Source: an uncultured delta proteobacterium (GTDB lineage: Bacteria; Desulfobacterota; Binatia; Binatales; Binataceae). Taken from it: a stretch of 64,000 bases of DNA. The notes under the pieces were generated by a model. The model had not been told where the DNA came from. It saw only the letters and a program-made list of their open reading frames with translations, and did no database searches. Location of the stretch: assembly GCA_963833025.1 (NCBI GenBank), contig CAWHWI010000003.1, positions 618,338-682,337 on the forward strand, written 5' to 3'. The translations under genes were made by a program, and so were the position numbers. Position 1 is the stretch's first letter. Each line of letters begins with the position of its first letter. This document shows, in pieces, positions 2,991 through 56,199 of the stretch.

Positions 2991-3000
2991 ATGCCCTTCT

Positions 3001-9582: not shown

Positions 9583-9588
9583 TAGCCT

Positions 9589-10779: not shown

Positions 10780-10785
10780 CGAGGA

Positions 10786-12411: not shown

Positions 12412-12415
12412 CTGC

Positions 12416-12928
12416 TCAGGCTGCGGCCACCTGCTTGCCATTGCCGTTGGGCGAGCGCACCAGCCAGCGCTCGGTCATCATCTTTTCCTGCAGCTTGAGC
12501 AGGCCCTCGGTCAGCGCCTCGGGGCGCGGCGGGCAACCGGGAACGTACACATCGACCGGCAGGATCTTGTCGACGCCGTCGCAGACCGAGTAGGCGAACT
12601 GGAACAGTCCGCCGCAGCTCGCGCACGAGCCCATCGAGATGACGTACTTCGGGTCGGGCATCTGATCGTAAAGCAGCCGTGTCCTGAGCGCCATTTTGAG
12701 CGTCAGCGTGCCCGCCACGATCATCAGGTCCGACTGGCGCGCCGACGCGCGCGGCGTCGCACCGAAACGATCGATGTCAGCGCGCGGGCCGCCCGTATGC
12801 ATCAGCTCGATCGCGCAGCAAGCCAGGCCGAACAGCATGTACCAGATGCTCGATTTGCGCATCCAATTCAGCAGCTCGTCCGTCTTGGTGGTCAAAACGT
12901 AATCGGGAAGCGTGTTCAACAAGGGCAT
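12416..12928 (-). CDS. nuoB: NADH-quinone oxidoreductase subunit B
   Basis: GLACCAIE...MGSCASCGG...VPGCPPRPE cluster N2 motifs. Confidence 0.94.
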
Positions 12929-12939
12929 AAAGACAAACC

Positions 12940-13332
12940 TCAGTCTTCGACCGGTACCTTCTTAATCCATTCCAGGTCGTGCTTGACCCAAACGTAAACC
13001 AGGCCGACGAACAGGATCAGCAGAAAAATTAAAATCTCGCTGAGCGCGTACAGGCGGCGTCCCGAGCGCACCCAGTCCAGGTAAACGGCGGCAATCGGAT
13101 AAACGAATGCGACCTCGACTTCGAACACCACGAAAATCAGCGCAATCAGGTAAAAGCGGACGTTGAAATTGATCCATGCGCGCCCGGTCGGCGGCTCGCC
13201 GCATTCGTAGGGAATCAGCTTCCGATCGTATGGATTTTGCGGCGCCAGCAGCTTCTGCAAGCCGAACATCAGCGCCACGAAGCCGATCCCGATGATCGTC
13301 AGAGCCAGCGGCACGCCAAAATTAAGATACAT
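12940..13332 (-). CDS. nuoA: NADH-quinone oxidoreductase subunit A
   Basis: 130-aa three-helix membrane protein, first gene of nuo cluster. Confidence 0.92.
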
Positions 13333-28958: not shown

Positions 28959-29339
28959 ATGGTTCAGCAGCACACATCGTCCGAGCACCTCAACGCGACT
29001 TTCTCGGCGCTCGCCGATCCCACTCGCCGCGCGATCCTCGCTCGCCTCGCGTCGGGCGAGACTTCCGTGTCCGAGCTGGCCGAGCCCTTCGAGATGAGCA
29101 TGCCCGCCATCTCCAAGCACCTGAAGGTGCTGCAGCGCGCGGGCCTGATCGAACGCGGCCGCGAGGCGCAATGGCGTCCGTGCCGGCTCGCCGCCGGTCC
29201 GCTCAAGGACGCCTCGGACTGGCTCGATCGCTATCGCCGTTTCTGGGAGGAGAGCTTCGATCGCCTCGAGGATTATCTGCGCGAGCTGCAGAAGCGCGAA
29301 TCACAAAAGAAGGAGACCAAAAATGGCCGCAAAAAGTAG
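28959..29339 (+). CDS. ArsR/SmtB family transcriptional regulator
   Basis: FSALADPTRRAILARLASGETSVSELAE...SMPAISKHLKVLQRAGLI wHTH. Confidence 0.85.
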   Translation: MVQQHTSSEHLNATFSALADPTRRAILARLASGETSVSELAEPFEMSMPAISKHLKVLQRAGLIERGREAQWRPCRLAAGPLKDASDWLDRYRRFWEESFDRLEDYLRELQKRESQKKETKNGRKK

Positions 29340-29844
29340 CGCCGCCGCTCAATCCGACTCGCGCGAGCTGGTCGTCACCCGCGTCCTCGACGCGCCGCGC
29401 GCCCTGGTGTGGAAAGCACTCACCGAGCCCGAGCGCCTCGAGCACTGGTGGGGGCCGAAGGGCTTCACTTCAAAGGTCCACAAGCTCGAGCTGCGCCCCG
29501 GCGGCATCTTCCTCTACAGCCAACGCACGCCTGACGGCCGCGAGATGTGGGGCAAATGGGTCTATCGCGAAATCGTCGCGCCCGAGCGGCTGGTGAGCGT
29601 CTCTTCCTTCACCGATGAGAAGGGTAATTCGATCCCGCATCCTTTGATCCCGAACTGGCCGCTGGAGATTCTGGGCGTGTCCACGTTCACCGAGCGTCAG
29701 GGCAAGACCACGATGGTCGTGCGGATGGTCCCGGTAAACGCGACCGAGTCGGAGCGCAAGACTTTCGAAGAACACCTCAATTGGATGGAAGAGGGTTTTG
29801 CCGGAACTCTCGAAAAGCTCGACAAATACCTGGCGTCACTCTGA
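29323..29844 (+). CDS. SRPBCC/AHSA1 (Aha1-like) domain protein, paralog 1
   Basis: RVLDAPRALVWKALTEPERLEHWWGPKGF signature. Confidence 0.8.
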   Translation: MAAKSSAAAQSDSRELVVTRVLDAPRALVWKALTEPERLEHWWGPKGFTSKVHKLELRPGGIFLYSQRTPDGREMWGKWVYREIVAPERLVSVSSFTDEKGNSIPHPLIPNWPLEILGVSTFTERQGKTTMVVRMVPVNATESERKTFEEHLNWMEEGFAGTLEKLDKYLASL

Positions 29845-29878
29845 GGCATCATCACCAACAGGCTGAAGGAGAGCAGCT

Positions 29879-29989
29879 ATGCAACTCAATCCCTATCTGA
29901 ACTTCGATGGCAACTGCGCCGCCGCGTTCAAGTTCGTCGATCAATTCGGCACGCCCTGGATGATCAACTGCGAGGGCGAAGCGCGATGA
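29879..29989 (+). pseudogene. 36-codon remnant of a PhnB/VOC-like gene (N-terminus only), translationally coupled (ATGA) to next gene
   Basis: MQLNPYLNFDGNCAAAFKFVDQFG matches the conserved N-terminus of PhnB-like VOC proteins, then stops. GAAGGAG SD upstream. Confidence 0.5.
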
Positions 29990-30480
29990 CTTCCGCAAGG
30001 CCGACGATATCCGATTCCGCGCCGGAAGATACCTCGGATCGCGAGATCGTCGTCACCCGAGTTTTCGACGCGCCGCGAGCGCTCGTGTTCAAGTTGTGGA
30101 CTGATCCGCAACATGTCGCGCGATGGTGGGGGCCGAATGGCTTTAGCACCACGACTTATGAGATGGACGTGCGGCCGGGCGGCGTGTGGCGCTTCGTCAT
30201 GCACGGACCCGACGGCCGGGATTATCAGAACAAGGTCGCATATGTCGAAATCGCCGAGCCCGAGCGACTGGTTTACAAGCATGTCTCCGGTCCGCAATTT
30301 CAAATGACGGTGACCTTTGCCGACGCCGGCGACAAGACGAGGCTCACGGCGCGGATGCTCTTCGAGTCAGCCACCCTGCGCAACAAGGTCATCGAAGAAT
30401 TCGGGGCCGTCGAGGGACTCAAGCAGACTCTCGGACGCCTCGACGATTATGTGAACCATACTAAGGAGAGCATCCGATGA
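29986..30480 (+). CDS. SRPBCC/AHSA1 domain protein, paralog 2
   Basis: RVFDAPRALVFKLWTDPQHVARWWGPNGF. Confidence 0.8.
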   Translation: MTSARPTISDSAPEDTSDREIVVTRVFDAPRALVFKLWTDPQHVARWWGPNGFSTTTYEMDVRPGGVWRFVMHGPDGRDYQNKVAYVEIAEPERLVYKHVSGPQFQMTVTFADAGDKTRLTARMLFESATLRNKVIEEFGAVEGLKQTLGRLDDYVNHTKESIR

Positions 30481-30929
30481 CTTCAAACACCGAAGTTACA
30501 GTTGGCGATCGCGAGCTCACCATCACGCGCATCTTCGACGCGCCCCGCCCGCTGGTTTTCTTCGCGTGGTCAAGACCCAAACATCTGATGCGTTGGTTCG
30601 CGCCCAACAACTTCACCGTGTCGGAGTGCGAGATGGACTTCCGCGAGGGCGGAAAGTTCCGGCTGTGCATGCGCGGCTTCGGCAAGGACCATTGGATGAA
30701 CGGCGTCTTTCGCGAAATCGTCAAGCCGGAGCGAATCGTCTGGAGCAGCTTGTTGGATAACGACACCAACGAAGTGGTCACGACGGCGACGTTCACCGTT
30801 ATGGGCGGCGGCAAGACCATGCTCACAGTGCATCAGACCTACTCGATCGAAACTGATTCGACCCGCGGTGCACCACAGGGATGGTCCGAAACCCTCGATC
30901 ATCTCGCCGAATTACTGGCGGACGCCTGA
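30477..30929 (+). CDS. SRPBCC/AHSA1 domain protein, paralog 3
   Basis: RIFDAPRPLVFFAWSRPKHLMRWFAP; ATGA overlap with paralog 2. Confidence 0.8.
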   Translation: MTSNTEVTVGDRELTITRIFDAPRPLVFFAWSRPKHLMRWFAPNNFTVSECEMDFREGGKFRLCMRGFGKDHWMNGVFREIVKPERIVWSSLLDNDTNEVVTTATFTVMGGGKTMLTVHQTYSIETDSTRGAPQGWSETLDHLAELLADA

Positions 30930-30954
30930 CGGAATCGACTGAAGGAGAATTATT

Positions 30955-31425
30955 ATGGGAGCAGCAGTTAACCTGGTAAGCGAGCCTGCGGATCGCGTGC
31001 TTAAAATCGAGCGCGTCTTCGACGCGCCGCGCAGTCTCGTCTTCAAAGCCTGGACCGAGCCCGAGCACATCGCGAAATGGTGGGGTCCGCGCGGCTTCAC
31101 CAGCACCGTTCTCAAAAACGATCTGCGCCCGGGCGGCGCCTATCGAATCCACATGCGCGGACCCGACGGCGATCACTGGACGCAGGGCATCTATCGCGAA
31201 GTGGTCCCTCCCGAGCGGCTGGTCATGGTCGGGAGCTGGGCCGATGCGCAGGGCAATCCAACGCGCCCCGAAACGACGCTGACGCTGCTGTTCGAGGATC
31301 TCGGCGGCAAGACCAAGCTCACTCTGCACAACGCGGTCTTCGAATCGGTCACGGCGCGCGATTTGCACCAGGGCGGATGGACCAGCGCGCTCGATTGTCT
31401 CGCCGAATACCTGGCAACTGCCTGA
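30955..31425 (+). CDS. SRPBCC/AHSA1 domain protein, paralog 4
   Basis: RVFDAPRSLVFKAWTEPEHIAKWWGPRGF. Confidence 0.8.
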   Translation: MGAAVNLVSEPADRVLKIERVFDAPRSLVFKAWTEPEHIAKWWGPRGFTSTVLKNDLRPGGAYRIHMRGPDGDHWTQGIYREVVPPERLVMVGSWADAQGNPTRPETTLTLLFEDLGGKTKLTLHNAVFESVTARDLHQGGWTSALDCLAEYLATA

Positions 31426-31449: not shown

Positions 31450-32580
31450 GTGATTATGGAGCACGCCGAATCAATCACGCCACAAAGCGGCGACCTGATC
31501 GTGATTGTCGGGACCGTCAAGGGCCTGTTCATTTTCAGCAGCGATCGCAATCGCCGCCAGTTCCGCATCGCCGGGCCCTACTTCAAGGGTCAGGCGGTTT
31601 ATTCGACGGCGTATCTTCCGGACGGGCGAGCGCCGCGCATCCTCGTCGGCCACATGAGTATGCACTGGGGCGCGCTGGTGAGCTGGTCGGACGATTTCGG
31701 CGCGAACTGGCACGAGCCCGACGACGGCAATGTCAAGTTTCCCGCCGGCAGCGGTCTCACGTTGAATGCGGTGTGGGCGCTCGAGCCCGCCCCGCTCATC
31801 GGCCCTGACGTAGTATTCGCGGGCGCCGATCCCGCCGCGCTCTATCGCTCCGATGATCGCGGCGAGACGTTTCATCCCGTCGAGTCCCTGCTCAATCATC
31901 CCGAGCGTCCGTACTGGATGCCCGGAGCCGGCGGGCTCTGCCTGCATACCATCCTGCCCGACCCGCGCGATCCGAAGCGTATCCTCGTCGGCATTTCGTC
32001 GGCCGGTATGTATCGCAGCGACGACGGCGGTGAGTCGTGGACGCGCCGCAACAAGGGCGTGAAGATGGAGGGCGGTCCGCCGCACGCGCCGCATTTCGGT
32101 CCGCAATGCGCGCACAAGATGCGCTACGATGCGAAAAATCCCGCGCGCATCTACCTCCAGAATCACCCCGGCGTCTATCGCAGCGACGACGGCGGTGATT
32201 CATGGATCGATATCGCCGCAGGACTGCCGTCGGTGTTCGGCTTTCCCCTGGTCGCCCATCCCAGCCTCGGCGATACCGCGTACCTGATACCGCTCGAATC
32301 CGATCAGTTTCGCGTGCCGCTCGAAGGCGCCGTCAAGGTCTGGCGAACGCGCGACGCCGGCGCGTCATGGGAGCCGCTCGGGGTCGGCCTCCCCCAACGC
32401 GACTGCTATTTCTCCGTGCTCCGCGACGCGTTCGCGTCCGACCGCCTCTCTCCCGCGGGGCTCTATTTCGGCACGCGCGGCGGACAACTGTTCGCGTCGC
32501 GCGACGAAGGAGAGAGTTGGAATTCGATCGCGGATTGGCTGCCCGCGGTGCTGTGCGTGAAAGCCGTCGAGGTCGCCTGA
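31450..32580 (+). CDS. BNR/Asp-box repeat protein (sialidase/Ycf48-like beta-propeller)
   Basis: Repeated YRSDDGGESW / YRSDDRGETF Asp-box motifs. Confidence 0.7.
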   Translation: MIMEHAESITPQSGDLIVIVGTVKGLFIFSSDRNRRQFRIAGPYFKGQAVYSTAYLPDGRAPRILVGHMSMHWGALVSWSDDFGANWHEPDDGNVKFPAGSGLTLNAVWALEPAPLIGPDVVFAGADPAALYRSDDRGETFHPVESLLNHPERPYWMPGAGGLCLHTILPDPRDPKRILVGISSAGMYRSDDGGESWTRRNKGVKMEGGPPHAPHFGPQCAHKMRYDAKNPARIYLQNHPGVYRSDDGGDSWIDIAAGLPSVFGFPLVAHPSLGDTAYLIPLESDQFRVPLEGAVKVWRTRDAGASWEPLGVGLPQRDCYFSVLRDAFASDRLSPAGLYFGTRGGQLFASRDEGESWNSIADWLPAVLCVKAVEVA

Positions 32581-32588
32581 GACCGGTG

Positions 32589-32873
32589 ATGCTCTTTCAT
32601 CTGCCATCTGCGCTCCGTCGATTTGCCCGCGACAGCGAGGTCGTCGAGATGCGGCTACCGCTCGACGCGCGAATGACGATTGGCGAGGCCTTCGTGATGC
32701 TCGGCCGCGACTATCCCGGAATCCGGCAGCGCGTGCTCGACGATCAGAACAATATCCGCCGCCACGTCAACGTATTCGTCAACGGCGAGAACGTGCGCTT
32801 CATGCAAGGTGGCTCGACGCAGGTTTCGAATAGTTCCGAAGTGTGGATTTACCCGGCGCTTTCAGGTGGATGA
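32589..32873 (+). CDS. MoaD/ThiS-family ubiquitin-like protein ending in Gly-Gly
   Basis: 94 aa, ...VNVFVNGENV...SEVWIYPALSGG-stop; 8 nt after the BNR gene stop. Confidence 0.72.
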   Translation: MLFHLPSALRRFARDSEVVEMRLPLDARMTIGEAFVMLGRDYPGIRQRVLDDQNNIRRHVNVFVNGENVRFMQGGSTQVSNSSEVWIYPALSGG

Positions 32874-32956
32874 CTTGTCGATTTCGGGATCCGTCGAACG
32901 ACTATACAGCAGAGAAGTCGAGAGACTGAGTCAAAGTATTTCGCGAGGATAAAGTC

Positions 32957-33205
32957 ATGCGGATCAGCAAACATCACTTAGGCATCGGTTTCGAAGTGTG
33001 GAACGCTCAACAGAGCTGGTTCTGGTTCGTGGCCAATACCAGTCGCAACGGCATGATTGGCGCGGCCGCTACCGAATCAGATGCGGTGCGCGAGGCGCAT
33101 GCGTCGATCGAAGAGATTTCCAATTCGAATATGCGGGCAGGCTGGGAATGTTCGCTCGGCAAGCTCGCGAAGTATCTCGCGTCTGTCTGCGACGCGACCG
33201 CATAA
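32957..33205 (+). CDS. hypothetical small protein
   Basis: 82-aa ORF with GAGGA SD 8 nt upstream; no recognisable family. Confidence 0.45.
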   Translation: MRISKHHLGIGFEVWNAQQSWFWFVANTSRNGMIGAAATESDAVREAHASIEEISNSNMRAGWECSLGKLAKYLASVCDATA

Positions 33206-33214
33206 TAGCTCAAA

Positions 33215-34105
33215 ATGCAAAACCCGCAGGAATACTATAAGAGCGAAGGGCCAATGACAGCTCTGGGAGCGCACGCGGAAGAATTCCGCGCGATGCCCAC
33301 GGACCTCGCCTCGCTATGCGAGGTCGTACAGGGCTTGCTGATTCATCGCGATATTGCGCCATGGCTGTACGGCCTCACGCTGACCGAGGCGCAGCGCGAC
33401 GACGGCAACATCCGCCCGATCGCGAAAATGCTGACGCGCATTCACGAGCTCGATTCGCGCCCGATCACGAGCGCGCGCGACGTCGGCCACCGGCTCCCCA
33501 GCGTATGCCGTCATTTTTCGCTGATGCTCAGCGCCATACTCCGGTATCAGGGCATACCGGCGCGGCCGCGATGCGGCTTCGGCGCCTACTTCACGCCGGG
33601 CAAGTTCGAAGACCATTGGGTGTGCGAGTATTGGAACGCCGGCGAGAAGCGCTGGATATTGGTGGACGCGCAGCTCGACTCGATTCAGCGCAAAGCCTTG
33701 AACATCAATTTCAACCCGCTCGACGTGCCGCGCGACCGCTTCATAATCGCGGGCAACGCGTGGCAGATGTGCCGCACCGGCGCCGCCGATCCCGCCAACT
33801 TCGGGCTCACGCACGTCCACCTGCAGGGGATGTGGTTCATCGCCGGCAACGTGGTCCGCGATCTCGCGTCGCTCAACAAAATGGAACTGCTACCATGGGA
33901 CGTCTGGGGCTTGATGGATATGAACGACGCCGCACTGACCGACGAGAAAAAATCCCTACTCGATCGCGTCGCAACTCTAACCCTCGCGGGCGACAACGCG
34001 TTCCCCGAAGTCCGCGCAATCTACAACGACGATCGCCTCCGCGTCCCACCACTTGTCTTCAACGCACTGCGCAACGCCCCCGAACCAATCGCGAGCGAGA
34101 ACTAA
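33215..34105 (+). CDS. transglutaminase-like cysteine protease domain protein (start may be ATG 33254)
   Basis: CRHFSLMLSAILRYQGIPARPRCGF...HWVCEYW...WILVDAQ, consistent with the Cys-His-Asp transglutaminase core. Confidence 0.72.
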   Translation: MQNPQEYYKSEGPMTALGAHAEEFRAMPTDLASLCEVVQGLLIHRDIAPWLYGLTLTEAQRDDGNIRPIAKMLTRIHELDSRPITSARDVGHRLPSVCRHFSLMLSAILRYQGIPARPRCGFGAYFTPGKFEDHWVCEYWNAGEKRWILVDAQLDSIQRKALNINFNPLDVPRDRFIIAGNAWQMCRTGAADPANFGLTHVHLQGMWFIAGNVVRDLASLNKMELLPWDVWGLMDMNDAALTDEKKSLLDRVATLTLAGDNAFPEVRAIYNDDRLRVPPLVFNALRNAPEPIASEN

Positions 34106-34240: not shown

Positions 34241-35752
34241 TCACCGACCGCCCGCTGCTGGCGCCGGCGCCGCCGGGCGCGACGGCTTTGGCATGTGGAT
34301 GTAGAGCTTGTCCGCCGCCGGACGGCCGTCGGTATGCATCGACGGCGGACGCATCGCGTACTTCACTTCGCGCGCGTGCTCGGCGAACTGCCGATCCGGG
34401 TTGTACACGCTGTTGAACTTCCACAGCATCTTGATGAAGTTGGTCTGCCCCTTCAGCGCGAGCTTGCCCGCGATCGACGCTACCGACTTCAGCGCCGCGA
34501 ACCCAAGATGCTTGCGGTTGAGCACGTCCTGCGTCTTCACCAGCTCCTGGTAGAACTGCAGCAGCGGCAACTTGGTCGGCAGCACCGCGTGCTGGATGTC
34601 GTACAGCCGGTAGTCGAGCGTCGTCAGCTTGCGCGATTCGGTGAACCACAGCTCGGTGCCGGGATACGGCGTCGCCACCGTCAGATGAACGATCTCGGGG
34701 ATGCTGATCGCCCATTCGCGAATCACCTCGAAGCGCTTCACGTCCCACGACGGGTCCGCGATCAGGTTGACCGCGACGGTCAAGCCAATCTCGCGCGCCA
34801 CTTCGAGCGCCTTGAAGTTGACGCCCATCGACGAGCGCTTGCGATGCAGCTTCAGGCCTTCTTCGTCGATCGCTTCGAGGCCCAGGAACATGTACTCCAT
34901 GCCGAGCTTGCGCCAGTAGCGGAACACTTCCGGATTGCGGCACAGTACGTCGGCGCGAGTCTCGAGGTAGTACTGCTTTTTGATTTTGCGCTTTTCGATT
35001 TCGTGCCCGATCGCGAATCCATGCTCCGGATGGATGAACGCGACGTCGTCCACGATGAAGACGTTCGGCTCTTTGATCGACAGCATGTCTTCGGCCGCCG
35101 CTTCCGGCGTCGATTTGCGGTAGCTGCGTCCGTAAAACGTCCACGCGCTGCAGAACGAGCAATCCCACGGGCATCCGCGGGTGAACTCGATCGACGCGCA
35201 CGGATCGAGCACGCCGATAAAATATTTGTTGCGCCGGCGCCCGAGATCGCGCGCGGGAAAAAACTTGTCGAGATCGTCGAGCATGACCGGCGTCGGCCCG
35301 GAGCCTTGCGTCGTCAACACGCCCGGAACTTTGCCAATCGAGCCGGTGCCGATTGCGTCGAGGAGCATCGGGGTCGCCGTCTCGCCCTCGCCGCGGATGA
35401 CCGCGTCGATCGCGCCGTCCGCATGCTCCAGAATTTCGTCGGCGACGAAGGAGCCGCTGTGCCCGCCGGTGAAGACGAAGCAGTCCTTCATCAGGCGCTT
35501 CACGTCCTTGGCGAGATCGATCACCTCGGGCACGTTGGCGAGGTAGTTGAGCGAGAAGCCGACCGCATTGGGCCGGAAGCTCTCGAGCTCGGCAAACAGA
35601 TCACGATGCTTGAAAATCTGCAGGTCGAGGATTCTGACGTCATGGCCGGCCGCGCGCGTGGCCGCCGCCACCCGCTCCATTCCCAGCGGTTCGAGCCGCA
35701 AATAAATCTCGCTGTACATAAGCGGACTTGGATGTACGAATAGGACCCGCAT
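34241..35752 (-). CDS. B12-binding domain radical SAM protein (candidate hopanoid-associated HpnJ-like)
   Basis: N-terminal B12-binding region (VLFVHPSPLMYSEIYLRL) and CxxxCxxC motif FTRGCPWDCSFC. Lies near hpn genes. Confidence 0.78.
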   Translation of the reverse strand: MRVLFVHPSPLMYSEIYLRLEPLGMERVAAATRAAGHDVRILDLQIFKHRDLFAELESFRPNAVGFSLNYLANVPEVIDLAKDVKRLMKDCFVFTGGHSGSFVADEILEHADGAIDAVIRGEGETATPMLLDAIGTGSIGKVPGVLTTQGSGPTPVMLDDLDKFFPARDLGRRRNKYFIGVLDPCASIEFTRGCPWDCSFCSAWTFYGRSYRKSTPEAAAEDMLSIKEPNVFIVDDVAFIHPEHGFAIGHEIEKRKIKKQYYLETRADVLCRNPEVFRYWRKLGMEYMFLGLEAIDEEGLKLHRKRSSMGVNFKALEVAREIGLTVAVNLIADPSWDVKRFEVIREWAISIPEIVHLTVATPYPGTELWFTESRKLTTLDYRLYDIQHAVLPTKLPLLQFYQELVKTQDVLNRKHLGFAALKSVASIAGKLALKGQTNFIKMLWKFNSVYNPDRQFAEHAREVKYAMRPPSMHTDGRPAADKLYIHMPKPSRPAAPAPAAGGR

Positions 35753-43219: not shown

Positions 43220-44089
43220 TCAAGCGGCGATTTTGCTCTTCGCAAGATCGGCAAACGTGATCAGCTCGATTCCATTTCGAGCGATCGCATCGCGCACGCG
43301 CGCGCTGGTGAGAATCTCGACCTCGAGCTGCGCCTCGGGCGCGGGCGGGACTCCGCCGATATCGGCGGCCGGATGAAAATAAAGCTCCGTCGCACCATCG
43401 CGGATACGATCGATCACGCCCACGACATAGTCCTCGCTCAGATGACCGCTCTGATGAAGTCCAAACAGCGCGTCGGTCGAGGTTAGGCCGCGTTCTGTCA
43501 TCATGCGGTGTGTTCGGCGCGACAGCGTGCGGAAAATGATCGACTCGACGAGCTTACGCGGCGCATTGTCGCGGCGCAGCCGGATCGTTGTCATCACGCG
43601 CTCGCGCGGCAGCCTGATGCACGGCACTTTGTATTCCACCGCGAGGTCAACCAGAATATCGGCGAACAGCGGATGGACGTGGAAGTTCAGATGGCCGTCG
43701 ATATGGTTGAGGTAGCCGACCAGCTCGAGATGCCGCTCGACTTGCGCGCGCAGCTCGTCGGTCATCGCGGCGCGCATCGAGCGGTCGAAAAAATATCGCA
43801 TCCCCGCAGTCACGGGACTGTCGATGAACTCGCCCGAGGCGTTGACCGCGGCGCCGAGCCTCGAGGCATCGAGCACACTGCGTCCGCGGCATACAACGGC
43901 ATGCAGCCCCACGTCGAGCGCGGGATCGTCGCGTGCCAACTCGGCAGCGGCACGCGCGGCAGGCTCGGCGACCATCAGGCTCGCACTGCGCAAAATTCCG
44001 TCGCGACGCGCGCGCATGACGCCGGCGTTGACCTCAGGCGACAAGCCGAAGTCGTCGGCGTTAACGATCAGGCGCTTCAAACCGCCCAA
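43220..44089 (-). CDS. hpnK: ChbG/HpnK (YdjC-like) family deacetylase, hopanoid-associated
   Basis: N-terminal LIVNADDFGLS hallmark of YdjC/HpnK; divergent from hpnG. Confidence 0.75.
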   Translation of the reverse strand: MGGLKRLIVNADDFGLSPEVNAGVMRARRDGILRSASLMVAEPAARAAAELARDDPALDVGLHAVVCRGRSVLDASRLGAAVNASGEFIDSPVTAGMRYFFDRSMRAAMTDELRAQVERHLELVGYLNHIDGHLNFHVHPLFADILVDLAVEYKVPCIRLPRERVMTTIRLRRDNAPRKLVESIIFRTLSRRTHRMMTERGLTSTDALFGLHQSGHLSEDYVVGVIDRIRDGATELYFHPAADIGGVPPAPEAQLEVEILTSARVRDAIARNGIELITFADLAKSKIAA

Positions 44090-44184
44090 CCGTGGTCACT
44101 GAAAAGGAACACCGGCACAATTTTGCTAGCATCGCACGGTTCGCTCAAGCGCTGACTCCGAAAAATCAAAATGAGACGACGCGA

Positions 44185-44988
44185 TTGATTCTTCTCTTTT
44201 ACGCCTTCGCACGCGAGATCGCGCCTTTCAAGCGCCGACTGCGAAATCGCACTCCGCTCGCTCTGGACGGCTTACATGGCTTTCGCGCAGAGATCGGCGG
44301 CAAACAGTTTGCCATTGTCGGGCACGGAATCGGTCATCGGCGCGCGACCGAAACCGCGCGCCGCGCGTTCGATTTGATGCCCGGGGCGGAGTTGGTGATC
44401 GGCACGGGCGTCGTCGGCGCGCTCTCGAGTGGACTGAAGCCGGGCGACCTCGTTCTCTCCGACCGCGTTCTGACAATTGACGCTGACGGGCGAGTTGAGG
44501 AACAAATGACCGCCGTCGGCGACGCGCATCTGCGCGCAACCGGCCGCGCGCTTGCGTCCGCAGGTATCGCATACTCGACCGGCGCGATTTTGACATCGCA
44601 TCGCGTGCTCGCGACGGGCGCCGAGAAACGCCGCGCCAAGGAAAGCACCGGCGCGATCGCCGTGGACATGGAAACCGCCGCGATAGCCGCGGAAGCCGCC
44701 GTGCGCGGACTCCCGTTCGTCGCGATTCGCGCGGTGCTCGACGAAGTTGACGACGAAGTGGTCGGCGCCGCGATGGCCGACCAGGACGGCAACGTGCGGC
44801 CGCTCGCCGCGACGTCCTACCTCCTGCGCAATCCGGGCACTATGCTCAAGCTGCCGCGGATGATTCGAAACCTCTCGCGCGCGACTGCCGCAATCGCCGA
44901 CGCACTCACGGCGATCGCGCACGACGGCAAGGTTCCCGCGGCGGCTAAGCGTGCTCTCGCGCCGGCGGAGCGAAAGCGCCCGCGCTGA
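44185..44988 (+). CDS. hpnG: hopanoid-associated phosphorylase (PNP/MTA-nucleosidase family); start uncertain (44092 or TTG 44185)
   Basis: Nucleoside phosphorylase-like fold motifs GIGHRRA...AVDMETAAIA. Confidence 0.7.
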   Translation: MILLFYAFAREIAPFKRRLRNRTPLALDGLHGFRAEIGGKQFAIVGHGIGHRRATETARRAFDLMPGAELVIGTGVVGALSSGLKPGDLVLSDRVLTIDADGRVEEQMTAVGDAHLRATGRALASAGIAYSTGAILTSHRVLATGAEKRRAKESTGAIAVDMETAAIAAEAAVRGLPFVAIRAVLDEVDDEVVGAAMADQDGNVRPLAATSYLLRNPGTMLKLPRMIRNLSRATAAIADALTAIAHDGKVPAAAKRALAPAERKRPR

Positions 44989-45739
44989 AACCGCCGTCAA
45001 TCGGCACCGCGACGCCCGTGATGAAGCCCGCCTCGTCCGACGCGAGGAACGCCGCCAGCGCGCCGACCTCTTCCGGCTTGCCGTTGCGCCCCAGTGGATG
45101 CATGTTGCCGGTGCGCTCCCAAACTAACTGCGACGCGCCGGCGGGAACGGTGTTGCAATTCTCGGCGATCGGCGTTTCGATCACGCCTGGGCAAATCGAC
45201 ACGCATCGAATCTTGTGACGCGCGAAGTCGAGCGCGATTCCCTTCGACATGATCACGACGCCGCCCTTCGCCGCCTGGTAGGCGCCGAGATTCGGCACGC
45301 CTTCGATGCCCGCGCCGCTGGCGGTGTTGATAATCACGCCGCCGCCCTGCTTGATCATTTGTGGGATCGCATACTTGCAGCCGAAAAATACGCCTTTCAG
45401 GCACACGTCCACGACCCAGTCCCATTCTTCCTCGCTCGTGTCCACGACAGTTTTGGGCACGAAGACGCCGGCGTTGTTGAACAGGATGTCGAGACGGCCG
45501 AACGCGGCGATCGTTTCGTTGACCATGCGCTCGACTTCGGCGCCGATTCGCACGTCCACCGATATCGATTTCGCGACGCCGCCCGCCTTCTCGATCTCAG
45601 CCGCGGTGTTGCTCGCCGTTTCCGCGCGCACGTCGGCGACCATCACCTTCGCGCCTTCTTGCGCGAACCGAATCGCGCTGGCGCGCCCGATTCCCGAACC
45701 CGCGCCGGTTATCAACGCAACCTTGTCCTTGAGCAGCAT
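44945..45739 (-). CDS. SDR family oxidoreductase
   Basis: MLLKDKVALITGAGSGIGRA, NNAG, YxxxK. Confidence 0.83.
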   Translation of the reverse strand: MLLKDKVALITGAGSGIGRASAIRFAQEGAKVMVADVRAETASNTAAEIEKAGGVAKSISVDVRIGAEVERMVNETIAAFGRLDILFNNAGVFVPKTVVDTSEEEWDWVVDVCLKGVFFGCKYAIPQMIKQGGGVIINTASGAGIEGVPNLGAYQAAKGGVVIMSKGIALDFARHKIRCVSICPGVIETPIAENCNTVPAGASQLVWERTGNMHPLGRNGKPEEVGALAAFLASDEAGFITGVAVPIDGGFSAGAFAPPAREHA

Positions 45740-45817
45740 GCTGAGTCACCTCGCCCGCCTAACCTTGGCTCGACGATCGACGCTTGCCACAGTTGGCGAA
45801 AATTTGGAAGGGCGGCG

Positions 45818-46717
45818 CTACGCGGTGGCGCGATGCAACTCGTGCTTGCGACCGCTCGTTGGCTTCCAGACAGGAAGATCGCGCTCGTAGGGAAAATCCG
45901 CGAGATGGCGTTCGATGGCGGCGGCGTCGCCCCAGGATTCGCGGCGGGTGAGGATGTGAATCGCGAGCACGGTGAACGGCAGATAGATAAACACGGCAGC
46001 CCACCCGATATTCGGCGCGTTGACTCGGAACAGCATCGCGATTCCGAAGATCACGATCCCTGCGTAGAGCGCCGGCCCCAGCAGCGCGCGCGAGGGCATG
46101 ACGGGAACCGAGCCGGCCGGCTTGTTCGCGCCGCGATTGAGTGCAGCGTCGAGCCACTGGAAAATCGCAATTGTGATCGCGGCGACGAAATACCATCCAA
46201 GATAGTTGCTGATCGGCACGCCGAAGTGCGGCCCCGGCGGATCGTACCAGAAAATTTTGCCGAGGAACCATCTTTCGCCGAGCACGCTCAACGGATCGAC
46301 GACCATGTCCACCATCACCATGAACAGCGCCGCCATCAGCCATACGCGCGGCGCTCGGCGAATCTCCCACGTGTCGAGAATCCGAATATCAACACCGCGC
46401 TGATAAAGCGGCGAACTCAGCAACAGCGCGACGGTGTAGCTGGCGAACGCGAGGAACGTGAACGACAGCGAATCCATGAACGGCACGCCGAACACCCAAA
46501 TCTCGCGCGCGCGACTCGCGTCAATATAGTGATACAGCCCGAATGGGAATCCGTTGTGGACCGAAGACCACTCGCACGCGAGCGACACGGCGTAGGTCAG
46601 CACCGTAAACAGCAGCGTCGTGCGCAGGCCAAAGTTCACAATCGCGATCAAGAGAAAACTCGCCAGGAAGATGAACACGTACGGGCGCAGCGCGATCGTG
46701 GATAGCAGCAGATGCAT
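45818..46717 (-). CDS. polytopic membrane protein (carotenoid-biosynthesis-protein/DUF422-like), downstream of hpnA
   Basis: 299 aa with ~7 hydrophobic helices; family assignment tentative. Confidence 0.45.
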   Translation of the reverse strand: MHLLLSTIALRPYVFIFLASFLLIAIVNFGLRTTLLFTVLTYAVSLACEWSSVHNGFPFGLYHYIDASRAREIWVFGVPFMDSLSFTFLAFASYTVALLLSSPLYQRGVDIRILDTWEIRRAPRVWLMAALFMVMVDMVVDPLSVLGERWFLGKIFWYDPPGPHFGVPISNYLGWYFVAAITIAIFQWLDAALNRGANKPAGSVPVMPSRALLGPALYAGIVIFGIAMLFRVNAPNIGWAAVFIYLPFTVLAIHILTRRESWGDAAAIERHLADFPYERDLPVWKPTSGRKHELHRATA

Positions 46718-46725
46718 CGCGGGGC

Positions 46726-47730
46726 CTATGCGGCGCTCTTGGTCGTCCCTTTGGATCTGAAAAATTCTATCGCCGACGCAATCGCCGCGTCGATCGGCCC
46801 CGGCGAATAGCCCAGCTCCGCGCGCGCCTTCGACGAGTCGAAAAACATCCGCTTGCGCGCCATCCGCACCTCGGTCAGACTGGCGCGCGGCGCGCGGCGC
46901 GTGACGGTGCGCGCGAACGCTTCAGCGCCCAGCGCATAGCCGAGAGCCACCGCGTAAGGAATTCGGATCTTCGGCGCAGGCAGCCCGGAAATTGCTGCGA
47001 GCCGTCCAAGAAATTCCTTGAGCGTGAGATTGTCGCCGCCCAGAATATATTTCTCGCCGATTCGGCCGCGCTCCGCCGCCAGCAGATGGCCGCGCGCGAC
47101 ATCCTCGACATCGACAATGTTCAACCCCGTTTCTAGATACGCGGGCATCCGCCGGCTCAGAAAGTCTACGATGATTCGGCCGGTCGGCGTCGGCTTGAAG
47201 TCGAGCGCGCCAATAGGCGTCGACGGATTCACGATCACCACCGGCGCGCCGGCGCGCGCGGCTTCCAGCGCCGCCTGCTCCGCCAGATACTTCGATCGCT
47301 TGTAGTGACCCGGCATGTCGGCGAGCGACGACGGCGTGTCCTCGCGTCCCGCTCCGCCGTGCGGAATCCCGAGCGCCCCCACCGTGCTGGTGTGAACGAT
47401 TCGCGAAACTCCCGCGGTGACCGCGGCCCGGATAACATACTGCGTGCCGGTAACGTTGGTCGCATACATCGGCGCCGAATCTGTAAGCCAGAGCCGGTAA
47501 TCCGCGGCGACGTGATAAACTTCGTCGCATCCCTTCACCGCGCCTTCGACCGAATCGAAGTACCGGAGATCGCCGCGCACCACCTCGATCGGCAGACCTA
47601 CCAGCGCGCTCAAATCCGCGTTCTCGCGCACCAGCACTCGTACCCGATCGCCTCGGGCAAGCAACGCCCGTACCACGTGGCAACCAACGAATCCGTTGCC
47701 GCCCGTCACCAATGCTAACTTGGTAGTCAT
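46726..47730 (-). CDS. hpnA: hopanoid-associated NAD-dependent sugar epimerase/dehydratase
   Basis: LVTGGNGFVGCHVVRALLARGD Rossmann N-terminus and YxxxK motif; operon context. Confidence 0.75.
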   Translation of the reverse strand: MTTKLALVTGGNGFVGCHVVRALLARGDRVRVLVRENADLSALVGLPIEVVRGDLRYFDSVEGAVKGCDEVYHVAADYRLWLTDSAPMYATNVTGTQYVIRAAVTAGVSRIVHTSTVGALGIPHGGAGREDTPSSLADMPGHYKRSKYLAEQAALEAARAGAPVVIVNPSTPIGALDFKPTPTGRIIVDFLSRRMPAYLETGLNIVDVEDVARGHLLAAERGRIGEKYILGGDNLTLKEFLGRLAAISGLPAPKIRIPYAVALGYALGAEAFARTVTRRAPRASLTEVRMARKRMFFDSSKARAELGYSPGPIDAAIASAIEFFRSKGTTKSAA

Positions 47731-47746
47731 TCGACTCGACGAATAG

Positions 47747-49111
47747 CTATTCGGCGGCCCGCGCGATTACGGCGGCGGCTGCGGCCCGTCCCGAAATCAC
47801 CGCGCTCTCAATCGTCGCCGGCAGCCCGGTCTGTATCCAGTCGCCGGCCAAAAAGAAATTCGCAATCGGCGTTTTCGCCATTGGACGCAGCTCATGCGAT
47901 CGAAGGTCTGGCGCCATCGTCGCGTTTTTCTCCTTCAGCACCAGCGACTTGACGACCTTCGCCGCGCGCGATACTGGAATCATCGCGTGGAGATCGTTTA
48001 TAACGATATCGAGGATCTCCTGGTTGCTGCGATCGACCAGCTTCCGCGCGCCGCTGATCACGAAGCTCAAGTAGCCCGGATGCGCCTCGCCGCGCTGCGC
48101 GAATATCTGACGTTTGTTGAATAGCCACTGAGTAGTGGTGCCGATAAACCCGATGAACGGTGAATTAGTCACTTCGCGATCGAGCCAGACGTGGACGCAG
48201 ATGATCGGCGAGCTCGAAAGACCTGTAAAGCGCGAGAAGAATGGATCTGCGACCGCGTTCTCGGGCAGAAACCGGAGCAGCTGAGGCGCCGGGACCGCGC
48301 TGATGAAGTCCGACGCCTCGATTCGCCGCCCGTCGCGAAGCCGCACGCTTTCGACCTGGCCCCGCTCGCCAACTTCCAGCATCTCGACGATCGAATGCGT
48401 CGCCACCGTCCCGCCGGCGCGCTCGACCAGCCGCTTCGCGCCCGTGCAGTACAAGTCGGTGAGGCCGACGCGGGAGTAAACGAACGCCGAGTCGCGGCGG
48501 CGCGAAAAAAACGCGCGCTTCAGGACTTCGGCCAATAGCTGCGCCGACGACAATTCCGGCTCGTCGTTCAGCGTCGCGATCGACATCGGGTACCAGAAGC
48601 ACCGGCGCGCGTGTTCCGACTGCCCGAGGCGATCCATCAGTTGCGCAACGGTCATAGTGCGGAGTTCGCCGCCGCCAAACCGTCTCATCGTGAGCATGCG
48701 AAGGCCGCCGCGCATAACGGAGATTCGCTCCGCGACACTCAGATGCCGGTAGCCGAGCAACGCCGCCGTCATGTGCAGCGGCCCTGGCAGCCGCGCCGTT
48801 TTCAGAGTCGCGCTCTGTCCGGGACCTGCGAGCATTTCGATCTCCAAATCCTCGTGAAACACCAACTGGTCGTACGCACCGATCCGCTTGAGGAAGTCGA
48901 GCGTCTCGCCGTAACAGCCCATCAGGACGTGCTGTCCGTTGTCGACGAAATCGCCGGTGTCCGCATCGGCGAACGAATACGCGCGCCCGCCGAGCGCCGG
49001 TTTTCCCTCGAGCACCGTGACCCGCATGCCGCGCTCCGCCAGCGCGACCGCGGCGCTGAGCCCGGCGAACCCGGCGCCGATCACGACCGTGTCTTTGATT
49101 ACGCGCGCCAT
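47747..49111 (-). CDS. hpnE: hydroxysqualene dehydroxylase (FAD-dependent amine-oxidase fold)
   Basis: VVIGAGFAGLSAAVALAERGMRVTVLEGKPALGGRA FAD dinucleotide-binding motif; adjacent to the two squalene-synthase-like genes. Confidence 0.8.
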   Translation of the reverse strand: MARVIKDTVVIGAGFAGLSAAVALAERGMRVTVLEGKPALGGRAYSFADADTGDFVDNGQHVLMGCYGETLDFLKRIGAYDQLVFHEDLEIEMLAGPGQSATLKTARLPGPLHMTAALLGYRHLSVAERISVMRGGLRMLTMRRFGGGELRTMTVAQLMDRLGQSEHARRCFWYPMSIATLNDEPELSSAQLLAEVLKRAFFSRRRDSAFVYSRVGLTDLYCTGAKRLVERAGGTVATHSIVEMLEVGERGQVESVRLRDGRRIEASDFISAVPAPQLLRFLPENAVADPFFSRFTGLSSSPIICVHVWLDREVTNSPFIGFIGTTTQWLFNKRQIFAQRGEAHPGYLSFVISGARKLVDRSNQEILDIVINDLHAMIPVSRAAKVVKSLVLKEKNATMAPDLRSHELRPMAKTPIANFFLAGDWIQTGLPATIESAVISGRAAAAAVIARAAE

Positions 49112-50035
49112 TTATCCGCGCAGCGAGCCGAAGCGGCCCACCGCCCACGCCCGGCCGACCAGGTAAAGCTTGTGCGGCGCGGAGAGGCTGTGGCGGCGGT
49201 CGAGCACGCGATAATTCGACTTGACGATTCGTCCGAGCAACGCGGCGTAGATCAGCCGCATCGCCTCCGCGGTCAACAGCGTCGCGCGATCTTCCGGCGC
49301 CAGCGCGCGCCGCGCCGCCGCGTAGAGTTCCTGCGCGCGTCGCGCCTCGAAGTCCATCAGGTTGACGAAGTTCGGCGTGTACACGCCGCCGATGATTTCC
49401 TCCTCGCTCACGTTAAATCGCGCGAGGTCTTCGAGCGGAAGATAAATTCGCCCGCGCGCCGCGTCCTCTCGCACGTCGCGAATAATATTCGTCAACTGAA
49501 GCGCGAGCCCGAGGTTCTCCGCGTAGGACTTCGCCGACGGATTGCGGTAGCCGAAAATCTCGATGCAGATGAGGCCGAGCGCCGACGCAACGCGATAGCA
49601 GTACGGCCGCAGCTCTTCCCAGCTTTGGTAGCGGTTGCGCGAGAGATCCATCTCCACGCCGTTGATGATTTCCTCGAACAGCTCCCGCGGAATGTTGAAT
49701 CGCCGCGCGCTATCGGTGAGCGCGCGTGAGAGAGCACGTGTCGGCGCGCCCGCATACACCCGGTCGAGTTCCTCGCGCCACCGCTTGAGCTGCAGCGCCG
49801 GCTCGCGAATCGATTCGTCGTCGGCGATATCGTCGATGAAGCGGCAGAATGCATAAACGGCGTGGAGCGCGCGGCGCCGTTCGGGCGGTAGCAGGATGAA
49901 CGCGTAGTAAAAGCTCGACCGCGAGCGCCGCGTGATTTCCGCGCAGCGTTCATAGTCGGCTTCGAGCGACGTGCCGTCGCGCCCGGCCGCTTGCTCGACG
50001 CCGGCGTCGCCGCCGTCAGACTTCAAGTCGTCCAC
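49112..50035 (-). CDS. hpnD: squalene/phytoene synthase family enzyme, presqualene diphosphate synthase-like
   Basis: YAFCRFIDDIADD and second Asp-rich motif region; HpnD assigned by gene order. Confidence 0.72.
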   Translation of the reverse strand: MDDLKSDGGDAGVEQAAGRDGTSLEADYERCAEITRRSRSSFYYAFILLPPERRRALHAVYAFCRFIDDIADDESIREPALQLKRWREELDRVYAGAPTRALSRALTDSARRFNIPRELFEEIINGVEMDLSRNRYQSWEELRPYCYRVASALGLICIEIFGYRNPSAKSYAENLGLALQLTNIIRDVREDAARGRIYLPLEDLARFNVSEEEIIGGVYTPNFVNLMDFEARRAQELYAAARRALAPEDRATLLTAEAMRLIYAALLGRIVKSNYRVLDRRHSLSAPHKLYLVGRAWAVGRFGSLRG

Positions 50036-50942
50036 GAATCGCGCTCCATCCGAGTTTCAGGTAGTCGAGTTTCGCTAATTCCGGACGCATCCGGAACACG
50101 TCGTAGTTGACGCGATCGATCGCGCGCAATATCGCCAGCCCGCCGCCCGCGAACATCACGATGTCGCGCCGCAGCCGCTTGTCGACGCGCTTGTGCAATT
50201 CTCCGCCCTCGACCAGCATCGCGCGCGCGACTCCCACCTCATGACGCATCAACTCCACGAATTCGCGCGACGACGTATGCGCCGCCAGATCGGCCGGCGT
50301 CACACCGAATCGTTCCATGTCGCGCCGCGGAAAATAAATTCTCCCCTTGTCGAGATCGACCGCAACGTCCTGCCAGAAATTGGCGAGCTGCAGGCCGCTG
50401 CAGACCAGATCCGACAGATGCTGCCGTTCGGGGTCGCGGTAGCCGAACAAATAAAGCACCAGCCGACCGACCGGGTTCGCCGAGTAGCGCGAATAGCCGA
50501 GCAGAGCTTCGAGCGTGTCGAAGCCCTTGAAATCCACGTCAGATCGAAACGCCGTCAGCAGGTCCTTGAACGGCTCGCGCGGAATATCAAAGCGGCGCAC
50601 CGTATCCGCCAGCGCGATAAACACCGGATGGCGCGGCGTGCCGGCGTACGCCAAATCGAGCTCGCGCTCCCATTGGTCGAGCATCTCGCGGTCATGATGC
50701 TCGTCGGCAAAGTCGTCGGCCATCCTCGCGTACGCATAAATCGCATACATGTGCGGGCGCATCTCGCGCGGCATCAGCCACGACGCGACGGTGAAATTTT
50801 CGTAGTGCGACTTCGCCAGCCGCGCGCAAAATTCGTACGCGCTCGCAACGTCGAACGTTCCCGGCGGCATCGACGCGTCACGCACCGCGCTCGATGTGTA
50901 CGACGCTGCTCCGCCCTGCACGTTGGCCCGCGCGCTTGCCAT
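50016..50942 (-). CDS. hpnC: squalene/phytoene synthase family enzyme, hydroxysqualene synthase-like
   Basis: HYENFTVAS...YARMADDFADE motifs; first of the SQS-like pair. Confidence 0.72.
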   Translation of the reverse strand: MASARANVQGGAASYTSSAVRDASMPPGTFDVASAYEFCARLAKSHYENFTVASWLMPREMRPHMYAIYAYARMADDFADEHHDREMLDQWERELDLAYAGTPRHPVFIALADTVRRFDIPREPFKDLLTAFRSDVDFKGFDTLEALLGYSRYSANPVGRLVLYLFGYRDPERQHLSDLVCSGLQLANFWQDVAVDLDKGRIYFPRRDMERFGVTPADLAAHTSSREFVELMRHEVGVARAMLVEGGELHKRVDKRLRRDIVMFAGGGLAILRAIDRVNYDVFRMRPELAKLDYLKLGWSAIRGRLEV

Positions 50943-50946
50943 CGTC

Positions 50947-52116: not shown

Positions 52117-52126
52117 CGCGACTCGC

Positions 52127-54085: not shown

Positions 54086-54138
54086 CTTTCACCCTTGCTT
54101 CGACTTAAGCCCACCCGTGAGCGCTCGCCGCGACCCGC

Positions 54139-56180: not shown

Positions 56181-56199
56181 GGGTTATCCGCTCGATTTC

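Follow-up and report, generated by a model that had tools for sequence, protein, structure and literature searches.

A gene for a seven-bladed BNR/Asp-box propeller and the gene that begins 8 nucleotides (nt) downstream of it, coding for a ubiquitin-like (Ubl) carrier of the ThiS/MoaD family that ends in Gly-Gly, form a conserved two-gene module. The pair lies in a 64,000-nt stretch of DNA (the window) from an uncultured delta proteobacterium of the Binataceae (GenBank assembly GCA_963833025.1, contig CAWHWI010000003.1, positions 618,338 to 682,337 of the forward strand). GC content of the region is ~61%, and close relatives of its proteins carry the labels Candidatus Binatus or Binataceae. 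The propeller and the Ubl protein almost certainly work together in one reaction, as indicated by comparative genomics, and to judge from their relatives this reaction is probably a transfer of sulfur. On balance we lean, with some reserve, towards an E1-activated sulfur carrier of the CysO/SAMP1 kind with a dedicated propeller partner of the family of PDB entry 3b7f.

An earlier note on this DNA had listed the BNR gene, the 8-nt gap, the ...PALSGG end, a small open reading frame (ORF) and a gene for a transglutaminase-like protein, and all were found again at the same positions. The features of the pair itself are as follows.

31456-32580, + strand: BNR/Asp-box propeller, 374 amino acids (aa), the ORF opening with GTG at 31450 (Pfam, PDB 3b7f match, AlphaFold 2 model)
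31687-31710, 31849-31872, 32017-32040, 32182-32205, 32347-32370 and 32497-32520, + strand: the six Asp-boxes of the propeller (motif)
32589-32873, + strand: ThiS/MoaD-family Ubl carrier, 94 aa (Pfam ThiS, NCBIfam SAMP1)
32865-32870, + strand: codons of the C-terminal Gly93-Gly94 of the carrier, with the stop codon at 32871-32873 (read from the sequence)

Translation of the propeller probably starts at ATG 31456, since its homologues begin with MELAES or MERAES and GAGGTG stands before this codon. Its stop codon (TGA, 32578-32580) is separated from the ATG of the Ubl gene at 32589 by the 8 nt just mentioned.

A gene pair kept together across phyla

An alignment of diverse propeller homologues was scanned against one genome per GTDB species, and the best 80 of at least 571 stretches were fetched, the neighbours in each locus being sought by tblastn with the window proteins. 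The loci of this branch, termed A, come from Binatia, Gemmatimonadota, Acidobacteriota, Actinomycetota, Myxococcota, Planctomycetota, Verrucomicrobiota, Rokubacteria and Eisenbacteria. In 76 of 83 loci the propeller gene is directly followed, on the same strand, by the Ubl gene; of the seven loci without it, six are on contigs that break off with the propeller gene or just beyond (76 of 77 when only informative loci are counted). The gap between the two genes is at most 30 nt in 60 of 75 loci, with stop and start codons that often overlap. Annotated plasmid and chromid records, 7 of 11 of which hold the pair, revealed a second branch (B), with 30-36% propeller identity. There a 'MoaD/ThiS family protein' comes first and an 'exo-alpha-sialidase' second, the reverse of branch A, in Ralstonia solanacearum, Cupriavidus metallidurans CH34, Mitsuaria, Pseudomonas aeruginosa and Chondrinema (Bacteroidota), while Nonomuraea and Arthrobacter records keep the order propeller then Ubl. 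A metagenome scan seeded on branch B provided 80 further loci, with the Ubl gene immediately upstream in 76 (76 of the 78 informative ones). The link therefore outlasts an inversion of gene order at that level of propeller identity.

Taken together, the pair is kept in 159 of 166 informative loci, from Binatia, Acidobacteriota, Gemmatimonadota, Actinomycetota, Bacteroidota and Pseudomonadota among others. When 1.84 billion representative proteins were searched exhaustively, 695 clusters at 50% identity with E <=1e-30 were counted, and the spread covers at least eight phyla. Two proteins from that search, P0368 and P0405, consist of the Ubl, its Gly-Gly, a short linker and the propeller. For P0405, a 1.49-Mb contig confirmed the fusion, with Pfam ThiS and BNR in one gene; P0368 has the same layout, but is present on short Logan contigs only, in a cluster of four of which two are unfused. 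A third candidate, the 457-aa metagenome protein P0172 annotated with both ThiS and BNR, was discarded as a frameshift artefact, its middle part reading the +1 frame of the propeller gene. The two partners also diverge in step: over 142 loci, pairwise distances between propellers and between Ubl proteins correlate with r=0.86 (0.70 and 0.75 within the branches), the top permuted value being 0.06. Conservation of the neighbourhood had been set beforehand as the test of the adjacency, and it is widely found. Chance, which the earlier note had kept as an alternative for the BNR and Ubl genes, is excluded by conservation, fusion and co-divergence.

No third partner emerged from clustering of ~900 and ~680 neighbour ORFs, beyond families specific to single clades. 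When the 150 nearest neighbours were sorted by Pfam, 130 different families came out, and ThiF, JAB, rhodanese and MoaE are not in the top 25. A general link with 'stress' genes (ArsR, SRPBCC, VOC, DUF899) was rejected, as it is limited to the Binatia clade. A YCII-domain gene accompanies the pair in Pyrinomonadales and in P. aeruginosa (L090 in our numbering of loci), where a YciI gene flanks it. Nine Pyrinomonadales/Blastocatellia loci have a gene for a secreted YCII-domain protein between propeller and Ubl; the inserted protein, of ~240 aa with an N-terminal signal-like segment, was noted in loci L046, L053, L055, L056, L060, L077-L080 and L083, and a DUF427 gene and a radical-SAM gene recur just downstream in loci with this insertion. 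The P. aeruginosa pair may be PA1355/PA1356, to judge from gene order near pmpM; in the one paper found to name PA1356, the gene is merely given the usual sialidase-type label. Weak, partial matches on haloarchaeal plasmids (24-30% identity) appear to belong to other BNR families. Two single loci may be mentioned here. On a plasmid of Rhodobacter sp. CZR27 (L085, 2595-6122), a propeller orthologue that lacks a carrier gene beside it is divergent to the ergothioneine genes egtB-egtD, which may be a coincidence, although these too are genes of sulfur metabolism. In a metagenome-assembled genome (MAG) of Bryobacteraceae (L074, 8305-10023), a persulfide-dioxygenase-like protein with a metallo-beta-lactamase fold and two rhodanese domains is encoded ~0.8 kb downstream of the carrier gene.

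A cytoplasmic propeller under a sialidase name

The propeller reaches 41.7 bits with Pfam BNR (cut-off 27) and 44.3 bits, also above the cut-off, with Sortilin-Vps10. It matches PDB 3b7f over its full length (E=8e-61, 34% identity), and its AlphaFold 2 model, predicted with good local and global scores (pLDDT 87, pTM 0.88), superposes on that structure with a template modelling (TM) score of 0.87. Together with the six S/T-x-D-x-G-x-x-W/F motifs, this places it in the seven-bladed Asp-box family of 3b7f. The latter is Reut_B4987 of Ralstonia eutropha JMP134, a structural genomics target that was deposited as 'putative glycosyl hydrolase'. It has seven blades, where sialidases have six, and its function was given as 'not known' (PMC2716378).

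Public databases name the orthologues 'exo-alpha-sialidase', 'sialidase family protein' or 'glycosyl hydrolase'. Taken at face value, these names would make the propeller an ordinary sialidase or glycoside hydrolase, with the MoaD/ThiS gene an unrelated neighbour, and it is true that after 3b7f the next structural matches are GH74 double propellers, before DAIP, sortilin and Ycf48. We give this reading next to no credence. The conserved adjacency, the fusion and the co-divergence refute its chance part, and the enzymatic part finds little support. Against an exo-alpha-sialidase of family GH33 stand a BNR_2 score of 17.3 bits, below the cut-off of 31.4, and the absence of any sialidase from the top 50 structural matches; the fold is a single seven-bladed propeller, not the six-bladed one of sialidases. 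GH74 xyloglucanases have two tandem seven-bladed propellers and ~700 aa or more, whereas the window protein is a single propeller of 374 aa, with TM scores normalised to the target of at most 0.35. Finally, no signal-peptide-like N-terminal segment was seen on reading the propeller sequence, and the protein is predicted to be cytoplasmic. The public names, which appear to derive from the repeats alone, are by all these comparisons a mislabel.

Nine polar residues of the propeller are invariant or nearly so in all branches: K24, H166, H222, Q237, H239, R244, D285, R288 and R325. According to predicted secondary structure and strand order, they would lie where inner strands begin and in the loops of one face, surrounding the central channel. 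Such a placement on one face is as expected for a binding or active site.

A carrier with an invariant Gly-Gly end

Pfam ThiS (PF02597) recognizes residues 12-94 of the Ubl protein with 35.6 bits against a cut-off of 22.5, which establishes its superfamily. Its assignment to the NCBIfam SAMP1 equivalog (NF041918) is marginal, with 60.9 bits for a cut-off of 60, and NCBI names close relatives likewise. The closest solved relative is CysO of Mycobacterium tuberculosis, in its complex with CysM (3dwg_C, E=1.9e-8), after which come a Thermus MoaD-related protein and archaeal SAMP1s. CysO is a proven thiocarboxylate carrier, and we count this relationship in favour of a sulfur carrier. The protein is not MoaD proper, with 36.3 bits in TIGR01687 for a cut-off of 49.5, and no MoaE-like gene was recognized in the window on reading a rough gene list, as distinct from a Pfam scan of every ORF. 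Canonical 82-aa MoaD is even encoded beside the pair in L096, L100 and L104, with MoaE as well in L096, and the propeller-linked carrier is therefore a distinct, second carrier. A CysO-type system defined by linkage was also discarded, as no CysM-type enzyme dependent on pyridoxal phosphate (PLP) and no JAB/MPN+ gene is found among the conserved neighbours.

The window protein ends in ...YPALSGG, with the stop codon immediately after Gly-Gly. The two glycines are invariant in the orthologues (75 of 75 in branch A and 76 of 76 in branch B, hence 151 of 151), and R57 and H59 are near-universal. The stop codon follows them directly in 124 of the 151, the remaining 27 having tails or fused domains. 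Among the 75 carriers of branch A, 49 stop at once, 12 have 1-5 further residues, 9 have 6-40 and 5 are fused; the extensions of these 26 range from 1 to 344 aa. Fusions at the carrier C-terminus involve a PNPOx-like domain in two Terriglobales MAGs (L047, 5616-6239, and L059, 7182-7853) and, in an Acidobacteria MAG (L075, 7128-8435), a Tag 3-methyladenine glycosylase followed by DUF5990. At these carrier-enzyme junctions Gly-Gly is kept, recalling ubiquitin-fusion precursors. An invariant Gly-Gly combined with variable pro-tails reads as the signature of a C-terminus that needs exposure and activation. There are precedents for the first of these steps: the MoaX carrier-partner fusion needs cleavage for activity (PMC4326299), and the MoaD-MoaE fusion of Deinococcus radiodurans is cut after Gly-Gly by a JAMM protease (PMC8832034).

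The same protein could be seen as a non-covalent companion of the propeller, a structural or regulatory subunit or a chaperone, with Gly-Gly kept for binding and no E1 step. Beta-grasp domains often act as adaptors (PMC1949818), fusions and long extensions after Gly-Gly occur, and most loci have no E1 gene nearby. However, a terminal Gly-Gly that is absolutely invariant, and followed at once by a stop codon in most orthologues, is not what such a role would predict; E1 genes recur beside the pair in three lineages, and the closest Ubl relatives are all activated carriers. We regard a purely non-covalent role as quite improbable.

Probable activation by a rhodanese-type E1

The earlier note had reported no E1, MoaE or JAB gene in the window, and this holds: a regular-expression search for ThiF/MoeB motifs in six frames over the 64 kb gave nothing, the rest being judged by inspection of a rough gene list rather than by a full Pfam scan. 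It is in other genomes that an activating enzyme is found next to the pair. In L018 the Ubl gene is followed after 8 nt, on the same strand, by the gene of an E1 of the MoeZ/Uba4 type, with ThiF and rhodanese domains, and L030 has a similar arrangement (both Gemmatimonadaceae); another follows Ubl-BNR immediately, on the same strand, in L162; others are adjacent in L101, L104 and L109, and one is partly present at the edge of L100. These loci represent ~3 independent lineages. By a rough estimate, which assumes 1-3 such genes per genome, less than one E1-bearing locus would be expected by chance among ~170 loci of 12 kb. A motif search for JAB over ~170 loci returned spurious matches only.

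With a canonical E1 beside the pair in orthologous loci, the simplest reading for the window is that its E1 is encoded elsewhere in the genome. Mycobacterial CysO and MoaD share a MoeZ that is encoded in trans, and by this analogy the missing gene would be unremarkable. Activation by E1, to which the context in relatives points, would be followed by sulfur transfer via the rhodanese domain, the route that we favour. The earlier note had proposed a sulfur-carrier or Ubl-conjugation-like module with a non-canonical set of partners. A carrier module with the BNR protein remains the best reading, but the set is less unusual than that: a canonical E1 adjoins the pair in 6-7 loci and the transglutaminase-like protein is not supported as a partner. 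The truly non-canonical element is the propeller.

To be sure, carriers of this kind may have another fate. The Gly-Gly protein might be a modifier, conjugated to lysines of target proteins as SAMPs, TtuB and Urm1 are, with the propeller as target or as an adaptor recruiting substrates. Eukaryotic E3 ligases use propellers as substrate receptors, and the non-enzymatic structural relatives of the present one bind peptides. The SAMP1 cut-off is just reached, pro-forms with tails after Gly-Gly are typical of conjugated Ubl proteins, and rhodanese-E1 systems such as Urm1/Uba4 do both sulfur transfer and conjugation (PMC9574740). By contrast, genes for E2, E3 or JAB/deubiquitinase proteins are not conserved near the pair, and none of the four proteins (propeller, Ubl, the small ORF and the transglutaminase-like protein) matches in PADLOC, which leaves them outside Bil-type and CBASS Cap2/Cap3 systems. 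Strict one-to-one pairing, with fusion to a single partner, resembles a carrier-enzyme couple (MoaD-MoaE, MoaX), and the invariant His/Arg/Asp cluster of the propeller would suggest catalysis. Conjugation as the main function is, in our opinion, unlikely.

A molybdoenzyme context in two lineages

Further context comes from a low-GC, Bacteroidota-like clade (L096, L099-L110), where the gene of the XdhC chaperone adjoins the pair in nine loci. Four loci have the order XdhC, a 150-aa Cys-rich membrane protein, Ubl, propeller, CoxM, CoxS, CoxL (molybdopterin-binding), CoxG and a MoxR-type AAA protein. In three others moaA, a cysteine desulfurase gene, sufU and a canonical 82-aa moaD, or moaE, come just before XdhC-Ubl-propeller. 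The 150-aa protein (L099, 5219-5671; also in L102, L107, L109 and L110) is a predicted membrane protein without Pfam match, encoded between XdhC and Ubl, with CxC and LPKCPFC motifs. Elsewhere, a fused Ubl-propeller (L179, GC 73%) comes after the 2Fe-2S subunit with a twin-arginine (Tat) signal, the molybdopterin-binding subunit and the flavin subunit of an enzyme of the xanthine-oxidase family. According to a 2026 review, it is still unknown how the cofactor is sulfurated in molybdoenzymes of this family (PMC13653126). As soil bacteria have operons of this sort in abundance, and the link is confined to two lineages, we treat the link to molybdenum as a lead and not as a result, and rate a role of the pair in maturation of the molybdenum cofactor or of xanthine-oxidase-family enzymes as rather doubtful.

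How the pair may work

The mechanism that we propose starts from what is observed, the membership of both proteins in their families, the invariant Gly-Gly and the fold of the propeller. The Gly-Gly end of the carrier would be adenylated, then most likely thiocarboxylated, by an E1 of the MoeZ/MoeB type with a fused rhodanese domain, encoded beside the pair in some genomes and, in the source genome, presumably outside the window. Carriers that bear a tail or a fused domain would require a protease that exposes Gly-Gly first. The propeller would be the dedicated partner of the carrier, with a role like that of MoaE for MoaD, ThiG for ThiS or CysM for CysO. It would dock the carrier so that the flexible ...A-L/V-S-G-G tail enters the conserved His/Arg/Asp/Lys cluster at the central channel, on one face, and would then use the activated sulfur or hand it on. 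Both the thiocarboxylate and the docking of the tail are steps that we infer. For docking, we count in its favour that the structural relatives of the propeller that are not glycosidases (sortilin, Ycf48, DAIP) bind peptides or C-terminal tails.

Several observations weigh against this scheme. The window contains no E1, rhodanese, JAB or MoaE gene, and most loci likewise have none nearby. Fusions and long tails after Gly-Gly would block activation by E1 unless cleaved, and no protease is conserved beside the pair. The cysteines C164 and C220 of the propeller are both replaced in Pseudomonadota, which leaves no universally conserved cysteine as a sulfur acceptor. Some propeller orthologues have no adjacent carrier (one Streptomyces plasmid, three Rhodobacterales plasmids, L053, L103 and L108). 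The molybdoenzyme context concerns 5 of ~174 loci, in two lineages, and with such operons common in soil bacteria it may be due to chance. Lastly, the homologue of solved structure, 3b7f, has 'function not known' against its name, and what we describe of the module comes from sequences and models.

The surroundings of the pair in Binatia

The other genes around the pair in the window are the following.

28959-29339, + strand: ArsR-family regulator (Pfam)
29323-31425, + strand: four tandem SRPBCC/AHSA1 genes (Pfam)
32957-33205, + strand: ORF82, 82 aa, no family match (no match in Pfam or NCBIfam)
33215-34105, + strand: transglutaminase-like (TGL) Cys-His-Asp protein, 296 aa (Transglut_core)
34241-35752, - strand: hpnR, hopanoid C-3 methylase (854 bits), adjoining the TGL gene

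From the last SRPBCC gene to the propeller gene there are 24 nt (to GTG 31450) or 30 nt (to ATG 31456), all on the same strand, and this spacing suggests that the ArsR and SRPBCC genes probably form one transcription unit with the pair in the lineage of the window. The Ubl gene is separated from ORF82 by 83 nt, and ORF82 from the TGL gene by 9 nt. A scan for promoters and terminators gave no clear instance of either, and folding of the Ubl-ORF82 spacer was uninformative.

The TGL protein belongs to the transglutaminase superfamily, with 28.3 bits in Transglut_core (PF01841, cut-off 23) and a triad, C98, H134 and D151, that is invariant in 15 homologues. Its AlphaFold 2 model is poor (pLDDT 46, from a shallow alignment), though the predicted order of a helix and then strands fits a transglutaminase core; its best sequence match in PDB was insignificant. 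The earlier note had singled out TGL and the 82-aa ORF as possible partners of the Gly-Gly protein, and one can imagine a four-gene module in which TGL, with ORF82, would be its processing protease or ligase. Three Binatia-like loci, L004, L005 and L007, with propeller identities down to 57-59%, do keep the order BNR-Ubl-ORF82-TGL; carriers in L005 and L007 bear a tail of 7-8 aa after Gly-Gly that would need removal; the triad is intact, and no terminator is evident between Ubl and ORF82. However, these are three of 83 branch-A loci, with none among the 80 of branch B, and the carrier of the window has no tail to process. Synteny largely refutes the idea. In L092-L094, relatives found via TGL (75% identity), a DUF899 gene sits exactly in the slot of BNR-Ubl, while ORF82-TGL stays. 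The flanks there are as in the window: a FAD-linked oxidase, an alpha/beta hydrolase, ArsR and SRPBCC on one side, and ORF82, TGL, hpnR, an aldo-keto reductase and DUF72 on the other. ORF82 and TGL are thus one conserved pair, and BNR and Ubl another. The adjacency of Ubl and TGL is restricted to a lineage and separable, and neither TGL nor ORF82 is part of the module; a joint function of the four has become very improbable.

In Binatia, BNR-Ubl acts like a cassette within an array of changing content, at the head of which stand ArsR and SRPBCC genes. The order ArsR-SRPBCC(n)-BNR-Ubl is also present in the Binatia-like L004, L006 and L007, and not outside that clade. Arrays headed by ArsR (window, L004, L006, L007, L092-L094) contain as cassettes 1-4 SRPBCC/AHSA1 paralogues, VOC/PhnB-like genes, DUF899 or BNR-Ubl, and their copy number and content vary between otherwise syntenic genomes. 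ORF82 is always directly before TGL (window, L004, L005, L007, L092-L094), with or without BNR-Ubl, and its product might serve as substrate, inhibitor or partner.

Two further regions of the window may be recorded. A nuo operon (NADH-quinone oxidoreductase) extends over ~3000-13300 on the - strand, with NuoL at 6061-8136, and is unrelated to the propeller-Ubl pair. A region of hopanoid biosynthesis, to which hpnR also belongs, continues at 43220-57204 with hpnK, an hpnG-like gene, hpnA, hpnE, hpnD, hpnC, dxr, the squalene-hopene cyclase gene and hpnH.

Place among known carrier systems

Sulfur-carrier and Ubl proteins are the prokaryotic roots of ubiquitin signalling, and each known carrier has a characteristic partner (MoaE, ThiG, CysM, TtuA). 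The CysO-CysM-Mec+-MoeZ system of M. tuberculosis, which makes cysteine in a thiocarboxylate-dependent manner, shares with the present carrier the ...L-R-x-H/F-V-N-I/V-F/Y... core and the ...P-A-V/L-S/A-G-G end; its E1 is of the ThiF+rhodanese (MoeZ) type and usually encoded elsewhere in the genome, as would be the case for the carrier of the window. By contrast, in ~170 loci no CysM-like PLP enzyme or JAB protein (Mec+) is encoded beside the pair; an Asp-box propeller is there instead. Like MoaD with MoaE, including MoaX and the D. radiodurans fusion, the Gly-Gly carrier lies tightly beside one dedicated partner, and carrier-GG-partner fusions exist in both cases. Some Bacteroidota-like loci even hold the pair among moaA, moaD, moaE, xdhC and moeZ-like genes. 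However, the propeller does not have the MoaE fold, and canonical MoaD/MoaE coexists with the pair, which is consequently not molybdopterin synthase itself. SAMP1/UbaA of Haloferax, TtuB/TtuC of Thermus and Urm1/Uba4 have in common with it a beta-grasp protein ending in Gly-Gly and, in some loci, a rhodanese-type E1 in the context; unlike here, conjugation is known for those systems, and they have no counterpart of the propeller, while the present Ubl is bacterial.

On the side of the propeller, 3b7f is alike in its seven blades and over its full length, and in the betaproteobacterial loci L086, L089 and L095 a carrier gene lies directly upstream of the propeller gene. Peptide-binding Asp-box propellers (the Vps10 domain of sortilin, Ycf48, DAIP) are of the same type and offer a precedent for a peptide tail at or in the channel: sortilin binds the C-terminal tails of neurotensin and progranulin, and Ycf48 binds a D1 peptide. 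They differ from the present protein in identity (12-16%), in blade number or location, and in having no link to a Ubl. In a limited library we found no paper that ties a sulfur carrier or a Ubl to a BNR/Asp-box propeller, an earlier mention elsewhere being possible.

The new part is the propeller partner, the likely activation of the Gly-Gly carrier by E1 being canonical. To the known partners the pair adds one with another fold: a cytoplasmic Asp-box propeller, routinely mislabelled as 'exo-alpha-sialidase' in databases. Being widespread, present in tractable organisms and endowed with a homologue whose crystal structure has been available since 2007, it has a function that is directly testable. 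As a tentative proposal, propellers of the 3b7f family may be an unrecognized class of enzymes that consume a Ubl thiocarboxylate, opening a new route of sulfur transfer in hundreds of species, maybe for maturation of the xanthine-oxidase family. Such a route would include P. aeruginosa, Burkholderia, R. solanacearum and C. metallidurans, and if the molybdoenzyme lead were true it would bear on how the molybdenum cofactor is sulfurated. Even if that lead fails, a common mis-annotation is corrected and a clean two-gene module is defined.

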